Source of the DNA: a virus
Taxonomy: Duplodnaviria; Heunggongvirae; Uroviricota; Caudoviricetes
IMG/VR virus record: IMGVR_UViG_2671180429_000007
Length of the DNA stretch: 25,499 bases
Direction: 5' to 3' (one strand)
Shown: positions 48-25,320 of the stretch, in pieces
Numbering within the stretch: position 1 is the first letter of the stretch
How the letters are laid out: each line of letters opens with the position of its first letter
Made by a program: the position numbers and the translations under genes
Notes under the pieces: generated by a model
What the model was told of the DNA's origin: nothing
The model's database searches: none
The model's input: only the letters and a program-made list of their open reading frames with translations

Positions 48-1043
48 GTGACCGTGAGAGCACTACTGACCCCTGAAATTGCCCCGCGTATGGGGATCGT
101 ATTGTTCAGGCCAGGTTCAGAGCTGATGCCCCTGTTTATGCAGGGGCGTGTCCTGCTGGAGCCAGAGCCGGAACGTTATTCATCTTTCGCCAGTGGTGCC
201 GTTCCGGCGGCAACACAACCGCTGGCGGATGATCCTGCCGTTCGGACCGTGTTCCGCAATGAGGCAGTGATCCGTCGTGCTGGTGGCGTGGAATGTCATG
301 AAAGCTGGTTACTTCGTGAAAAGGGCTGTCAGTGGCCTCATTCTGACTGGCACAGCGAGAACATGACCACAATGCGGCACGCTCCGGGAGCAATTCGTCT
401 GTGCTGGCACTGCGATAACCAGCTGCGTGACCAGTTCACGGAACGGCTGGAATCAATGGCAACGGATAACTGTGCCCGCTGGGTGTTGTCTGTCGTGCGT
501 CGGGATCTCGGTTTTGATGACAGTCACGTTGTGACAATGCCGGAACTGTGCTGGTGGCTGGTTCGTAATGATCTGGCGGATGCCTTACCGGAAAGTGCAG
601 CCCGTAAGGCACTGAGATTACCGAAGCCTGTTGTGCCATCTGTCACCCGGGAAAGTGACCTTGTGCCTTCGGTTCCTGCCACCAGCATCATCCAGGATAA
701 GGCGAAAAAGGTGCTGGCGCTGAAAGTGGATCCGGAGTCGCCGGAGTCTTTTATGTTACGCCCAAAACGTCGCCGCTGGGTTAATGAAAAGTACACGCGC
801 TGGGTTAAGACGCAGCCGTGTGCATGTTGTGGAAAGCCTGCTGATGATCCCCACCATCTGATAGGCCACGGTCAGGGGGGAATGGGTACAAAAGCGCATG
901 ATCTCTTTGTGTTGCCTTTGTGCAGAAAGCATCACGACGAGCTGCATGCGGATACCGTGGCATTTGAAGAGAAGTATGGCTCCCAGCTGGAGTTGATATT
1001 TCGTTTTATCGATCGTGCGCTGGCAATTGGTGTGCTGGCCTGA
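48..1043 (+). CDS. DUF968-like phage protein (YdfU-like) with C-terminal Cys/His-rich motif
   Basis: 331-aa ORF. C-terminal block (RPKRRRWVNEKYTRWVKTQPCACCGKPADDPHHL...LCRKHHDELH) resembles, from memory, the DUF968 proteins found upstream of Q in lambdoid prophages. Start is uncertain: GTG at 48 with a poor RBS, in-frame stop at 21..23. Confidence 0.6.
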   Translation: MTVRALLTPEIAPRMGIVLFRPGSELMPLFMQGRVLLEPEPERYSSFASGAVPAATQPLADDPAVRTVFRNEAVIRRAGGVECHESWLLREKGCQWPHSDWHSENMTTMRHAPGAIRLCWHCDNQLRDQFTERLESMATDNCARWVLSVVRRDLGFDDSHVVTMPELCWWLVRNDLADALPESAARKALRLPKPVVPSVTRESDLVPSVPATSIIQDKAKKVLALKVDPESPESFMLRPKRRRWVNEKYTRWVKTQPCACCGKPADDPHHLIGHGQGGMGTKAHDLFVLPLCRKHHDELHADTVAFEEKYGSQLELIFRFIDRALAIGVLA

Positions 1044-1417: not shown

Positions 1418-2611
1418 AAAATAAAATAGATTTACTGCCGATTTTTCAAAAAAGACTGGGAACTGTTTATATCCAACGTAAATAAGGCCTCCATAAAACA
1501 TGGCTGATGCGAGATATTTAACAGTTCTCATCCTTTTTTTAGCTTTATCAATCAAACCTGTAATGCTACTCTTAATACTATCTGCATTATCTTTGATTTC
1601 TTTATTTTCTTCAAACTTTAAATACTTATCGAAAGCGGACTCCACTCGAGAACGTAAGTTGTCGAATGTTTCATTGAATATCTCAATAGAAATGTAATTG
1701 ACTTTTTTTATCATCCAAAGTCCTGCGATAATCAATATTGCTTCGGTTGTTTCATTAGCCTTCACTAAGCCACCAGCAGCTATTAATGCACCGGGAATAG
1801 TCAATGCTTTTGTCTGATTAGATGATATGAATTCGTTAATTTTACTCGTGAACTCAAGATTTTTCTCATCGAGTTCGTTAAGAATTTTATTTACAGAAAA
1901 CCTCTTTGTGTAAATCTCATATAGTTCATCATATTTTTTCCTGACGAGTTCAGTAGAGTTAAGCAAGTCAAAGAAATTGAACGTACCATTTGCTTTAAAT
2001 ACTTCGTTTATGGCTGAGCGTATAACGAGCTTGCGCTCGCTTTTGTGTAAATCATTGATTTTTATTGTGTCGAGAAGCTCCTTTATAATTTCATATTTAA
2101 GAGACGAGTTCGATAAGCGATTAATCTCGCTATATTGTAAAAAATGCGTGAGTTCGACTGTATAACTTTTGTCTTCATTGGTGAAAAATAAGACAGAGCA
2201 GTCACTGTTATGATGATCAGCAATTAATGAAAGGATATCTTTCCACATAAAGAAAATATGGATTTTTTCGATGCTTTCATTCTTAGAAGTAGGGAGTATT
2301 AACGGCGTTCCGATGATATAATTTTTCGGAAGAGCGTTTTGGGTGTTTACTCTAGACCAAAAAGACTCAACATTCTCATAAATTATAGCGTCATCCCAAG
2401 ATGAAGCTTGGCGATCTAGCCAAATTTCATTATTTTCGATGCAGGTTGTTGCCTTTTTATAACCTATAGATTGTAACAGTCTAATTATTTCAGAACTATT
2501 TACAATAACAATGCTTTCTTCAAGACTTATGACAGTGTAGTAGCCCTCAACTCTGCTTGAGGCTCCGTTAATAATCTGCGCTAATCTTGATAAGTCATCA
2601 GCAATTGTCAT
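1397..2611 (-). CDS. Hypothetical protein with C-terminal hydrophobic (likely membrane) segments; second gene of AT-rich two-gene moron
   Basis: 404-aa ORF, visibly AT-rich, K/N/I/E-rich. Start codon at 2611..2609 lies 2 nt after the stop of the upstream gene (2616..2614). Hydrophobic stretches ALTIPGALIAAGGLV, AILIIAGLWMI and YLASAMFYGGLIYVGY near the C-terminus. I recognise no family. 3' end overlaps the Q gene 3' end by 21 nt, convergently. Confidence 0.6.
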   Translation of the reverse strand: MTIADDLSRLAQIINGASSRVEGYYTVISLEESIVIVNSSEIIRLLQSIGYKKATTCIENNEIWLDRQASSWDDAIIYENVESFWSRVNTQNALPKNYIIGTPLILPTSKNESIEKIHIFFMWKDILSLIADHHNSDCSVLFFTNEDKSYTVELTHFLQYSEINRLSNSSLKYEIIKELLDTIKINDLHKSERKLVIRSAINEVFKANGTFNFFDLLNSTELVRKKYDELYEIYTKRFSVNKILNELDEKNLEFTSKINEFISSNQTKALTIPGALIAAGGLVKANETTEAILIIAGLWMIKKVNYISIEIFNETFDNLRSRVESAFDKYLKFEENKEIKDNADSIKSSITGLIDKAKKRMRTVKYLASAMFYGGLIYVGYKQFPVFFEKSAVNLFYFLCHTIS

Positions 2612-2613
2612 TA

Positions 2614-3789
2614 TTAGCTGTCTCTATATCTTTTGAGTTCATCATAATTTGCCTGACTCAATTTTATCACAATTTCGCATTTGTTGTCAGTGAGAATTAC
2701 AGGCTTATTTGACTTTTCGTCTCCAATAGCTCCACGCATTATTTTCAACTTAAAATTATTGTCGTTATCTGCCACTTCAATTGTAAGCGCGCTTTCAGCT
2801 GCTTTAGGAGTTGGTTCAAATTGAGGGTCAATCTGGAAACCATTAAGATTAACAAAATCGACAAACGTTCCCTTACATTTGTGTGAATCAGTCAGGCATG
2901 AGTCAATTATTTTTGAAATATCCTCTATCTTAACGGACTTATTTCCGTGTTTATCTTTTGATTTTTTTTCCAGTAAGGATTTAACTTCATTGTCAATAGT
3001 ATCACGCAGTACACGACCGAGTGAGTTTTTACTAGCAAAAATATCTATAGCACTGAATAATTGCTGAATGCTTCTTTTATTGTCCGAATCATGTCGGCAA
3101 CCTAATGAGTCTTTGAAAAAATCGCTTTTAGATTTACCTTGCAAGAAATGTACATATGAGTCACCCTTGTTTTCTGGATAACTGGCTTCGAATAAAGTTA
3201 AATCGAACATCGCAGCCTGCCGTAAGGCATCGGTATTAATTGGATTTAATCTTGTTGGGGTCAACTTATCCGAATCAAAGTCATAGGCGCTTTGTTTATC
3301 AACCATTACGATTAGAAGTTTCCCCAAATCCTCTGGTTCGGTAGACTTATAGTGGATGAAAACAACGCTCCCCCCCTGAAGTTGGGCAACTCTCGATTCG
3401 TTATTAGCATTATGTTTAAGCTTCTCTATTATAGCTCTAGATAAATCAATGAATTCATTATTTTTATTAATGTATTTTTTTAGGATCGTAGGAATGGATG
3501 AAGGGTTGTGATCTGAGTCTAGGAAGTTATGAAATTTGTTTTTTCGGCTAAATTTTTTCTCAATTCTGGTTATGAATTCAGATGTGACTTCATTTTTTAG
3601 ATCCCAAACTTCACCTAATCGATAATCAAATGCTCTTGAATCATTTTTTTCAAGATTTGCTGTTACAGCACCAATAGGAAAGTACGATTGTTTGCCCAGC
3701 ACTACAACATGAGGCGTGGCACCGCATTTATCGCAAGCTACAGTTGGGTCGTCAAGAACATTGCCACATTCTAAACAAGTTATATCCAT
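2614..3789 (-). CDS. Zinc-ribbon protein with NdpA/YejK-like (NA37) nucleoid-associated domain; first gene of AT-rich two-gene moron
   Basis: 391-aa ORF, AT-rich. N-terminus has CxxC...CxxC (CLECGNVLDDPTVACDKCG). Central block GGSVVFIHY...LLIVMVDKQ...AMFDLTLFE...YVHFLQGKSKSDFFKDSLG resembles my recollection of E. coli YejK/NdpA (GGFVLFCHY...ARIDLTEWE...[22 protein letters not shown]). Needs HMM confirmation. Confidence 0.6.
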   Translation of the reverse strand: MDITCLECGNVLDDPTVACDKCGATPHVVVLGKQSYFPIGAVTANLEKNDSRAFDYRLGEVWDLKNEVTSEFITRIEKKFSRKNKFHNFLDSDHNPSSIPTILKKYINKNNEFIDLSRAIIEKLKHNANNESRVAQLQGGSVVFIHYKSTEPEDLGKLLIVMVDKQSAYDFDSDKLTPTRLNPINTDALRQAAMFDLTLFEASYPENKGDSYVHFLQGKSKSDFFKDSLGCRHDSDNKRSIQQLFSAIDIFASKNSLGRVLRDTIDNEVKSLLEKKSKDKHGNKSVKIEDISKIIDSCLTDSHKCKGTFVDFVNLNGFQIDPQFEPTPKAAESALTIEVADNDNNFKLKIMRGAIGDEKSNKPVILTDNKCEIVIKLSQANYDELKRYRDS

Positions 3790-3801
3790 TATATATCCCG
3801 A

Positions 3802-3842
3802 ATTATAAGAATGAATTTTTATGTGGCTGAAAATTCTATCAA
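3802..3842 (-). promoter_or_regulatory. Candidate sigma70-type promoter region for the minus-strand moron operon
   Basis: On the minus strand a perfect TATAAT (plus-strand coordinates 3807..3802) lies about 12 nt upstream of the ATG of the 2614..3789 gene. A TTGATA element (3842..3837) lies further upstream but is not at canonical spacing to that TATAAT. AT-rich UP-like context. Not experimentally defined. Confidence 0.25.
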
Positions 3843-3906
3843 AACACTAACGCGTACGCAAAAAGTATTGTATTGTGTTAAGAGTGGTTACTTCGCCACA
3901 CAGCTT

Positions 3907-3936
3907 AAACCCGCCGTCGAGCGGGTTTTGTCGTTT
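3907..3936 (+). terminator. Rho-independent terminator, candidate tR' of the late operon
   Basis: AAACCCGC-cgtcga-GCGGGTTT hairpin (stem 3910..3914 / 3921..3925, extendable with A-T pairs) followed by TTTTGTCGTTT. Sits between the Q gene and the holin, where lambdoid phages place pR'/qut/tR'. Confidence 0.5.
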
Positions 3937-4080: not shown

Positions 4081-4407
4081 ATGCCTCATAACCCAAATAC
4101 TTGGCTGGAGTTGGTCCAGAGCTGGTGGCGTGGAGACACACCGCTGGGCGCAGTGATTATGTCGATCGTTATGGCTGGCTTGCGCATTGCCTATTTTGGC
4201 GGTGGTGGTGGCTGGAAGAGAAAAACGCTCGAGATTTTGCTCTGTGGCGCTCTGACGCTGACCTTTGCATCCGCGCTTGAGTATGTCGGATGGCCTAAAT
4301 CGCTTTCTGTTGCCATTGGTGGTGGCGTTGGGTTGATCGGTGTCGATGCTATTCGTGGGGCTGCAATGAGAGTAATCGGTAACAAGTTTGGTGGCTCTAA
4401 GGAGTAA
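4081..4407 (+). CDS. Phage holin
   Basis: 108-aa ORF directly upstream of the endolysin. Hydrophobic helices (AVIMSIVMAGLRIAYF, LLCGALTLTFASAL, VAIGGGVGLIGV) and charged C-terminal tail. Position is that of lambda S. Confidence 0.75.
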   Translation: MPHNPNTWLELVQSWWRGDTPLGAVIMSIVMAGLRIAYFGGGGGWKRKTLEILLCGALTLTFASALEYVGWPKSLSVAIGGGVGLIGVDAIRGAAMRVIGNKFGGSKE

Positions 4408-5750: not shown

Positions 5751-6002
5751 ATGTCATCTACAAAATTAGTTAAAACTATCCTTTTCCATGGAGATAATAA
5801 ATATGAAGTTTATGCAACCTCCGAGTACGCTGACGTAGATAGAATCATTCATTACAAGTTACGCTCATGTAAAAACACAGATGGTTCAGATGGCAAGTCT
5901 GAATCTATATGGGTTGTATATAATCCTGCTGTTCAACTACCGGATGATCTGAACTACAAAAAAGTTAGCAACATAGCTCCTTATCTTGAAAAGTTACAAT
6001 AA
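5751..6002 (+). CDS. Hypothetical small protein (AT-rich moron gene)
   Basis: 83-aa ORF, AT-rich, AGGAG RBS upstream, followed by tandem terminator hairpins. No family recognised. Confidence 0.5.
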   Translation: MSSTKLVKTILFHGDNKYEVYATSEYADVDRIIHYKLRSCKNTDGSDGKSESIWVVYNPAVQLPDDLNYKKVSNIAPYLEKLQ

Positions 6003-23541: not shown

Positions 23542-24327
23542 ATGCATCGTATAGACACGAAAACCGCGCAGAAGGATAAGTTCGGCGCGGGTAAGAACGG
23601 TTTTACCCGTGGTAACCCCCAGACTGGCACGCCTGCCACCGATCTGGATGATGACTACTTTGATATGTTGCAGGAAGAACTCTGCAGCGTGGTGGAGGCA
23701 TCCGGTGCCAGCCTGGAGAAGGCGCGGCACGACCAGTTGCTTACCGCGCTTCGTGCGCTGCTGTTAAGCCGCAAGAATCCGTTTGGCGATATCAAATCGG
23801 ATGGCACGGTGAAAACGGCTCTCGAAAACCTTGGTTTGGGAGAAGGCTCTGCATTACCTGTTGGTGTGCCTGTTCCATGGCCTTCAGCCACACCGCCAAC
23901 AGGCTGGCTGAAATGCAACGGTGCGGCATTTTCTGCTGAAGAATACCCGGAACTGGCAAAGGCTTACCCGACCAATAAATTGCCTGATTTACGTGGTGAG
24001 TTTATTCGTGGCTGGGATGATGAACGTGGTGTGGATAGTGGGCGAACTCTGCTTTCAGCGCAAGGAGATGCTATTCGAAACATTACTGGCGGTTTTGGTC
24101 AGTTGCGCGTAAACAGCGAAATTAATGCAATTGTCGATGTTCAAAGTGTGAGTGGGGCTTTTTACGGAGGTACCTCAGTCCGGAATAACATCAATGTATC
24201 TATGACATACGCTAATGACCGAAAAATCCGACAAGATGTTCACTTCTCGGCGGCAAATGTTGTTCCAACAGCAAATGAAAATCGTCCACGTAACATCGCC
24301 TTTAATTATATTGTGAGGGCCGCATGA
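23542..24327 (+). CDS. Side tail fibre protein
   Basis: 261-aa ORF. N-terminus ([46 protein letters not shown]) is the conserved tail-fibre anchor region. Followed by a tail fibre assembly gene. Confidence 0.7.
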
Positions 24328-24929
24328 TGAATAAAGCTGTATTGAATAGCGAACTCATTGCCATAAAAGCGGGAGACATTATCATTTATAATTATGATGG
24401 TGAAACGCGGGAATATATTTCTACATCAACTGAATATCTCGCTGTCGGCGTCGGTATCCCGGCATGTTCCTGTTTGGATGCACCAGGTACACATAAAGCT
24501 GGTTATGCAATCTGTCGCTCTGTAGATTTAAATTCATGGGAATATGTGCCAGACCATCGCGGTGAAGTTGTCTATAGTACCGAAACGGGAGATACCAAAG
24601 AAATCACAGTTCCGGGTGATTACCCGGAAAATACAACCACTATAGCCCCATTAACGCCATACGATAAATGGGATGGTGAGAAATGGGTGACCGATACTGA
24701 GGCACAGCATAGCGCCGCAGTAGACGCGGCAGAAGCACAGCGTCAGTCACTGATTGATACTGCAATGGCTTCCATTAGTCTGATTCAACTGAAATTGCAG
24801 GCCGGGCGGAAGCTGATGCAGACAGAAAACACCCGACTTAACGCTGTGCTGGATTACATTGACGCGGTGACGGCAACAGATACCAGCACCGCGCCGGACG
24901 TCATCTGGCCTGAACTGCCGGAGGCGTAG
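24324..24929 (+). CDS. Tail fibre assembly protein (Tfa)
   Basis: 201-aa ORF with ATGA overlap to the fibre gene. C-terminus ...[15 protein letters not shown] is typical of Tfa chaperones. Confidence 0.8.
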
Positions 24930-25320
24930 GCCATTCAATATCTGGCGCACCGGAAGTATCGACCAGTTCCAGTGCGTCCAGATAATCCAGCCACAAATTA
25001 TATTGCGCCAGTTCCTCACCTTTCAGGCGACCAATCGCCGCTTTACCTGGCCATTGTCTGCTGTTCATGTGCTCGTTGGCTTCATTAATAAGTTTTCTTT
25101 TTTTCAAATCCGCCAATGCAATAAGGTTTTCTTTTGATAAAGGTGGTTGCTCTGTCAAAACCGGATATCCCTCCTGATTGCTGACTATTTTCATGCCATT
25201 ATCCTGACCATCCAGTAGTAACAGCCATTCATCCGTGGTTATCTCAACAGCATCTGAAGGTGCTTTATTTAAATCGGTAAAAAAACCATTTTCTTTTTGT
25301 GAATAGAAGTATCTATCCAT
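24901..25320 (-). CDS. Tail fibre assembly protein, alternative copy on the opposite strand
   Basis: 139-aa minus-strand ORF convergent with the + Tfa, overlapping it by 29 nt. C-terminus ...[13 protein letters not shown] parallels the + copy. GGAGA RBS upstream of its ATG. Confidence 0.75.
   Translation of the reverse strand: MDRYFYSQKENGFFTDLNKAPSDAVEITTDEWLLLLDGQDNGMKIVSNQEGYPVLTEQPPLSKENLIALADLKKRKLINEANEHMNSRQWPGKAAIGRLKGEELAQYNLWLDYLDALELVDTSGAPDIEWPTPPAVQAR

Follow-up and report, generated by a model that had tools for sequence, protein, structure and literature searches.

We analyzed a stretch of 25,499 nucleotides (nt) of DNA from a virus of the Caudoviricetes (IMG/VR record IMGVR_UViG_2671180429_000007; this whole stretch is called the window) with respect to a single gene at positions 2614 to 3789 on the minus strand. 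The open reading frame (ORF) was identified by sequence, with near certainty, as the gene for DS-1A, the nucleoid-associated protein (NAP) subunit of the published two-gene prophage defence system DS-1. It extends from an ATG at 3789-3787 to a stop codon at 2616-2614 and encodes a protein of 391 amino acids (aa) with the N-terminus MDITCLECGNVLDDPTVACDKCG. The assignment is based on the ORF itself, on the Pfam NA37 and NCBIfam NF053868 profiles, on identity to WP_000355468.1 and on an AlphaFold2 (AF2) model that was matched to YejK by Foldseek. All 391 of 391 aa match WP_000355468.1. The protein passed the curated equivalog model NF053868 (DS1_1_antiphage, "nucleoid-associated anti-phage protein") with 451.4 bits at a cutoff of 330, and 367 of the 369 profile positions were aligned. 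DS-1A and its partner DS-1B both passed the equivalog cutoffs of their curated NCBIfam models, and RefSeq uses the same names. In NZ_CP135719.1, which carries the identical locus, the RefSeq products are "nucleoid-associated anti-phage protein" and "anti-phage protein", so that at least one of the listed genomes has been renamed; in older RefSeq records DS-1A is named just "nucleoid-associated protein". The locus is already known, by its identical sequence, by phage tests, by curated hidden Markov models and by RefSeq product names. Neither DS-1A nor DS-1B was matched by PADLOC-DB v2 (2023). This library predates the DS-1 work, and its silence is therefore no evidence against a defence function.

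DS-1 was described by DeWeirdt et al. in the DefensePredictor study (bioRxiv 10.1101/2025.01.08.631726, January 2025; Science 2026, PMC13092281). Under the working id D390 it was taken from E. coli GCF_003886375.1 and consists of WP_000355468.1 (391 aa) and WP_000150292.1 (404 aa). The pair was tested in E. coli MG1655 as one transcription unit, cloned with its native upstream region into a low-copy plasmid (PMC13092281). The complete DS-1 record in Table S7 of this work comprises seven phage rows, flagged "replicated TRUE". The strongest effect was recorded for Bas1, with a -log10 efficiency of plating (EOP) of 7.6, followed by Bas26 (2.7), Bas3 (1.7), T3 (1.7), T5 (1.0), T7 (0.9) and SECphi27 (about 0). 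Small plaques were noted for Bas26, Bas3, T3, T7 and SECphi27, and plaque size was not flagged for Bas1 and T5. The restricted groups are T1-like (Bas1, Bas3), T5-like (T5, Bas26) and T7-like phages (T3, T7), and "a YejK nucleoid-associated domain" was counted among the newly validated defence domains (PMC13092281). A preliminary description of the gene, made from the letters alone, had suggested that a nucleoid fold was repurposed here. This agrees well with the published data, as the identical protein protects against phages together with its partner (PMC13092281). That description deserves credit for recognising, from the sequence alone, both the fusion of a zinc ribbon to a YejK-like domain and its likely repurposing. 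A literature search for other reports of NA37-based defence found none beyond DeWeirdt et al. and a study on PANGU systems by Li et al., which is discussed below.

Judged from its profile matches, DS-1A is a member of the NA37 family and not an orthologue of the housekeeping protein YejK. Pfam NA37 (PF04245) matched residues 64-376 with E=1.2e-23 and 84.5 bits (gathering cutoff 24.6), aligning profile positions 27-318 of 325, and the NA37/YejK-like domain spans aa ~40-380. This relationship, which had been noticed by eye, is thus far beyond chance. A phmmer search of the PDB sequences gave a single match, E. coli YejK (9be2_A, E=1.2e-9). The AF2 model of DS-1A, built on 37 homologues, has a mean predicted local distance difference test (pLDDT) of 85.4, and 9be2 was also its sole significant Foldseek match in the PDB (E=1.7e-14, probability 1.00), so that the comparison with YejK structures led to the same family. 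The template modelling (TM) scores between model and 9be2 are 0.42/0.48 at 19% identity, and the high global root-mean-square deviation suggests a different domain arrangement in the modelled protein. The YejK equivalog NF001557 was not passed, with 81.4 bits at a cutoff of 341, and the candidate assignment of DS-1A as a YejK orthologue on a mobile element was rejected on this score.

The core motifs of the family are found in DS-1A as GGSVVFIHY (residue 139), LLIVMV (158), FDLTLFE (195) and YVHFLQGKSKSDFFKDSLG. The last of them reads Y..FL.G-x4-DFF.D.LG. All of the YejK core blocks listed in the preliminary description are present, but the spacing of 7 residues given there for the last block is that of E. 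coli YejK, and in DS-1A it is 4 residues. Directly within this block (...DFFKDSLGC...) lies Cys231 (window about 3097-3099), which is kept in 35 of the 37 homologues, with or without the ribbon. The aligned position in E. coli YejK is Ala.

The N-terminus of DS-1A carries two CxxC pairs, as had been described, in a CxxC-x10-CxxC zinc-ribbon unit encoded at 3724 to 3777 on the minus strand. It comprises aa 5-22, with CLEC at residues 5-8 and CDKC at residues 19-22 (Cys5, Cys8, Cys19 and Cys22), and is indicated by the motif, by Cys conservation, by sub-threshold profiles and by published HHpred results. Zinc-ribbon profiles of Pfam stayed below their cutoffs (Zn_Ribbon_1, E=0.07; DZR, E=0.16), and residues 1-30 form short strands in the AF2 model with a pLDDT of about 60. 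The published HHpred analysis of WP_000355468.1 assigned NA37 to residues 42-382 and NinF/Zn_Beta_Ribbon to residues 3-26, the latter with a probability of 86% (PMC13092281). Conservation of the cysteines was analyzed in an alignment of 37 full-length homologues with 96% to 29% identity to DS-1A. The ribbon cysteines occur in an all-or-none manner: all four are present in 19 of the 37 homologues, down to 37% identity, and none in the other 18. The ribbon-bearing set consists of all Enterobacterales and two metagenomic proteins (P0071 and P0092, 39% and 37% identical in BLASTP), and the ribbon-less set contains proteins from Pseudomonas, Vogesella, Oceanimonas and others. Since the four cysteines are either all present or all absent, we judge the ribbon to be a genuine yet optional N-terminal module. 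It is probably an accessory module of the enterobacterial clade which tunes binding to DNA or to the partner, and not the core sensor. The ribbon-less relatives carry acidic low-complexity tails at their N-termini instead (P0063-P0110), e.g., DELELDEELDES and DQDYDDVDDQND. Such an acidic tail could be a built-in DNA mimic or an autoinhibitor.

The partner gene was overlooked in the preliminary description. This is of importance because both genes were tested as one transcription unit in the published work. It is located at 1397 to 2611 on the minus strand and encodes DS-1B, a protein of 404 aa and the probable effector, with DS-1A as the probable sensor subunit. The start codon of DS-1B lies 2 nt beyond the stop codon of DS-1A on the same strand. 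Evidence comes from the ORF, NCBIfam NF053869, identity to WP_000150292.1, an AF2 model and the hydropathy of the family. DS-1B passed NF053869 (DS1_2_antiphage) with 375.2 bits at a cutoff of 315 and is identical to all 399 printed residues of WP_000150292.1, and a Pfam scan of the protein gave no match. The AF2 model (pLDDT 85.8) shows an alpha/beta N-domain (residues 1-165) and then long helices (220-268, 271-284, 288-331, 337-383 and 385-403). The N-domain is acidic with a net charge of -9 (family mean -6.4). In the family-averaged hydropathy profile, conserved peaks at 269-285 and 288-305 lie next to each other and correspond to a hairpin located where the long helices end in a tip, and a third conserved hydrophobic peak was seen at about 364-384. 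Nowhere in DS-1B is conservation higher than around this hairpin.

Homologues of DS-1A and DS-1B co-occur in the same genomes, often with adjacent locus tags. Downstream of a P. aeruginosa relative of DS-1A without the ribbon (38% identical), the next gene matches the DS-1B profile with E about 1e-100, and the same was found for a metagenomic relative with the ribbon (37% identical), where the next downstream gene matches with E about 1e-112. Because a DS-1B-type gene adjoins both ribbon-less and ribbon-bearing A homologues, the A-B pair is the conserved unit and is independent of the ribbon, with DS-1B as the obligate partner of DS-1A at the genomic level. On P. aeruginosa contigs (L002-L004, 5001-7422) the ribbon-less pair adjoins a Pf-like filamentous prophage with Zot and DUF2523 genes. 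Therefore, DS-1-type systems ride on very different mobile elements across hosts.

A mechanism for DS-1 can be proposed in analogy to the PANGU systems. PANGU systems are bicistronic operons of a YejK-like NAP and an effector (Li et al., bioRxiv 10.64898/2026.04.06.716658, April 2026). Pag1A, the NAP of type I, binds long DNA without specificity and departs from the nucleoid once T4 has begun to degrade the chromosome. The released Pag1A dimer clamps the acidic DNA-mimicking domain of the GRel toxSAS effector Pag1B, which is activated in this way, and a DNA-binding-deficient NAP renders the pair toxic (10.64898/2026.04.06.716658). Type II consists of the NAP Pag2A and of Pag2B, whose N-terminal domain is an acidic DNA mimic and whose C-terminal domain is transmembrane. 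For an E. coli example of this type (PANGU-Ecu) it was shown that both genes are required, that infection is abortive, that the NAP binds its partner with a dissociation constant (KD) of 19 nM and that the same relocation takes place. The two studied systems did not restrict T1 and T5, and both phages were stated to degrade host DNA (10.64898/2026.04.06.716658).

Transferred to DS-1, DS-1A would sit non-specifically on chromosomal DNA in the uninfected lysogen. Degradation of the host chromosome by an infecting phage would release it, and the freed protein would bind the acidic, possibly DNA-mimicking N-domain of DS-1B. The hydrophobic helical hairpins of DS-1B would then disrupt the inner membrane, and the infected cell would no longer support growth of the phage (abortive infection). 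T7 and T3 degrade host DNA. We favour this PANGU-like mechanism because it fits the fold of DS-1A, the architecture of DS-1B, the PANGU data and the degradation of host DNA by T1-, T5- and T7-like phages, and by analogy we give the four steps together roughly even odds.

Several points weigh against it. The studied PANGU systems are active against T4 or Bas34 and inactive against T1 and T5, whereas DS-1 restricts Bas1, Bas3, Bas26, T3, T5 and T7, and no T4 effect is recorded for DS-1 (Table S7, PMC13092281). The EOP drop of 10^7.6 on Bas1 is stronger than that of many abortive-infection systems. The hydrophobicity of DS-1B is moderate, with a best 19-aa Kyte-Doolittle window of 1.56 in the E. 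coli protein. In addition, no mechanistic experiment on DS-1 itself has been reported, and mechanism, point mutants and single-gene deletions are absent from the Science paper (PMC13092281). A further reading takes up the difference in phage range. Within NAP-based immunity, the ribbon-bearing enterobacterial DS-1 clade might form a subtype with a mechanism of its own, in which the ribbon serves as a second input for phage DNA ends or nicks or for a phage protein, and in which DS-1B is a new membrane-active effector with no known pore-former relative. We regard this as rather doubtful. If true, the second input would account for the restriction of T1-, T5- and T7-like phages by DS-1, unlike the characterised PANGU systems.

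Apart from the PANGU-like mechanism, DS-1A might act as a direct sensor of phage DNA. Ribbon and NA37 domain would then recognise the incoming genome, e.g., by its ends, by nicks, by single-stranded or by AT-rich, unprotected DNA, and switch on DS-1B. We consider this to be unlikely, although it has several arguments on its side. Nucleic acid binding is common among such ribbons, the four-Cys unit is strictly conserved in the enterobacterial clade and T5 DNA carries nicks. The different range of DS-1 (T1-, T5- and T7-like phages, not T4) and PANGU (T4, not T1 or T5) would also fit a different trigger. However, ribbon-less homologues keep a DS-1B-type partner, and the ribbon can therefore not be the essential sensor of the family. 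The studied YejK-type proteins bind DNA without sequence specificity (10.64898/2026.04.06.716658), and discrimination between phage and host DNA is seen in no data. A role as DNA sensor had also been put forward in the preliminary description. In its general form this agrees with the PANGU preprint by analogy, but the PANGU NAP reports the loss of host DNA and not the presence of phage DNA.

An inner-membrane DS-1B could also block injection or another early membrane step of siphoviruses and podoviruses, as direct immunity and not by abortive infection, with DS-1A only as a regulator or chaperone. The very strong protection against Bas1, about 10^7.6-fold and without plaques, is what entry or early blocks typically give, the hydrophobic helices of DS-1B are conserved, and prophages, such as the one that carries the gene, commonly encode superinfection exclusion. 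Such an exclusion at the membrane is nevertheless improbable in our view, as the restricted T1-, T5- and T7-like phages differ in receptors and injection routes. It would also be hard to explain why a DNA-binding partner of the YejK fold is conserved in Enterobacterales, Pseudomonas and others, and the related type II PANGU acts by abortive infection and needs both genes (10.64898/2026.04.06.716658). The least probable reading is that DS-1A is a housekeeping or regulatory nucleoid protein of the prophage or host, i.e., a xenogeneic YejK paralogue with an influence on DNA topology or gene expression, and that defence is a side effect of expression from a plasmid. The clear NA37 homology and the older RefSeq name "nucleoid-associated protein" would fit this. 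In contrast, the YejK equivalog score of 81 bits is far from the cutoff of 341, the gene is closely linked to a partner that is not a NAP and has hydrophobic helices, and its position between Q and holin matches a lambdoid site for accessory cargo. We hold this reading to be very improbable, and a purely architectural role is effectively excluded, since the pair protects against phages and DS-1A stays below the YejK equivalog cutoff.

The setting of the DS-1 operon is that of an AT-rich prophage moron, as had been stated for DS-1A. The G+C content is 0.36 for the DS-1A gene and 0.35 for the island at 1418-3900, compared to 0.54 for the remaining window, which represents the lysis, terminase, head and tail module of a prophage. 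The operon lies antisense to the late genes, between the antiterminator gene Q and a holin gene. In many lambdoid prophages the Q-holin interval holds accessory cargo such as stx. The Q gene is located at 1046 to 1417 on the plus strand (PF06530, E=3.2e-47; also annotated by RefSeq in the identical locus) and is convergent with DS-1B, with an overlap of the 3' ends by 21 nt. The lambda-family holin at 4081 to 4407 on the plus strand, known from the RefSeq annotation of the identical locus, marks the start of the lysis cassette. A G+C-rich hairpin followed by a T-run was found upstream of the holin at 3907 to 3928 on the plus strand in a scan for terminator-like elements, with the arms AAACCCGC and GCGGGTTT. 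By analogy to lambda tR' it is probably the terminator of the late operon and the target of Q action. On the opposite strand, the DS-1 operon has been inserted between the Q gene and the hairpin. Its upstream region at 3790 to 3900 (minus strand) was inspected by consensus scan and by reading of the sequence, and tentative promoter-like elements are TTGATA-16-AAAAAT at 3842-3815 and TATAAT 13 nt before the DS-1A ATG. Promoter-like sites show no excess over shuffled sequence (12 vs 9.7±3.4).

The full DS-1 locus was found at 99-100% identity in 106 of 5,426 complete E. coli genomes, and Q and holin are its neighbours in 12 of 12 individually listed E. coli matches. Among the deposited phage genomes of INPHARED the flanks gave matches, but the DS-1 genes were found in none. 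Its known occurrences are thus confined to bacterial genomes, as part of prophages.

Three other regions of the window are mentioned here. Directly upstream of Q, the gene at 48-1043 (plus strand) encodes a DUF968 protein whose C-terminal part matches an HNH-like nuclease profile (PF16784) slightly above the cutoff. DUF968 is a common lambdoid gene. An ORF of 83 aa at 5751-6002 (plus strand), in a stretch with a lower G+C content of about 0.44, lies between the lysis genes and the HNH endonuclease/terminase genes. It has no match in Pfam or NCBIfam and is possibly a second small moron. At 23542-25320, where the G+C content is lower (0.47), two opposed tail-fibre-assembly genes (PF02413) at 24324-24929 (plus strand) and 24901-25320 (minus strand) come after a tail-collar fibre gene (PF07484). 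The arrangement resembles invertible host-range segments of the Mu G / e14 P type, and the window ends before any invertase gene.

The reuse of an abundant chromosome-packaging fold for sensing infection is an interesting idea that has only recently entered the field of bacterial immunity, and the DS-1 locus is suited to asking whether the destruction of the host genome is sensed and how DS-1B kills or blocks. Compared with known systems, DS-1 in the window has the same proteins (NF053868/NF053869), gene order and 2-nt spacing as the published DS-1. The latter was assayed on a plasmid, whereas the window shows the system in its natural prophage setting between Q and holin. With E. coli YejK/NdpA (9be2), DS-1A shares the fold, Pfam NA37 and the motifs GGxVxFxHY and FLxG...DFFxDxLG, but the two proteins are only about 19% identical and DS-1A fails the YejK equivalog cutoff. 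Unlike E. coli YejK, DS-1A has an additional N-terminal zinc ribbon, is encoded in an AT-rich prophage island together with a partner gene of its own, and serves defence and not housekeeping. Type I PANGU shares with DS-1 the YejK-like NAP as sensor and the proposed release followed by binding to an acidic domain. Its effector, however, is a soluble alarmone synthetase, and DS-1B contains no such domain and no Pfam match at all. Type II PANGU is also found in E. coli as a two-gene operon with the YejK-like NAP first and with an acidic N-domain and C-terminal hydrophobic or membrane helices in the partner. By its architecture, DS-1 is compatible with this type. The word "zinc" has 0 occurrences in the text of the type II PANGU preprint, whereas DS-1A carries a ribbon. 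The role of this ribbon, the DS-1B effector and a phage range that differs from PANGU are the features which make DS-1 of further interest.

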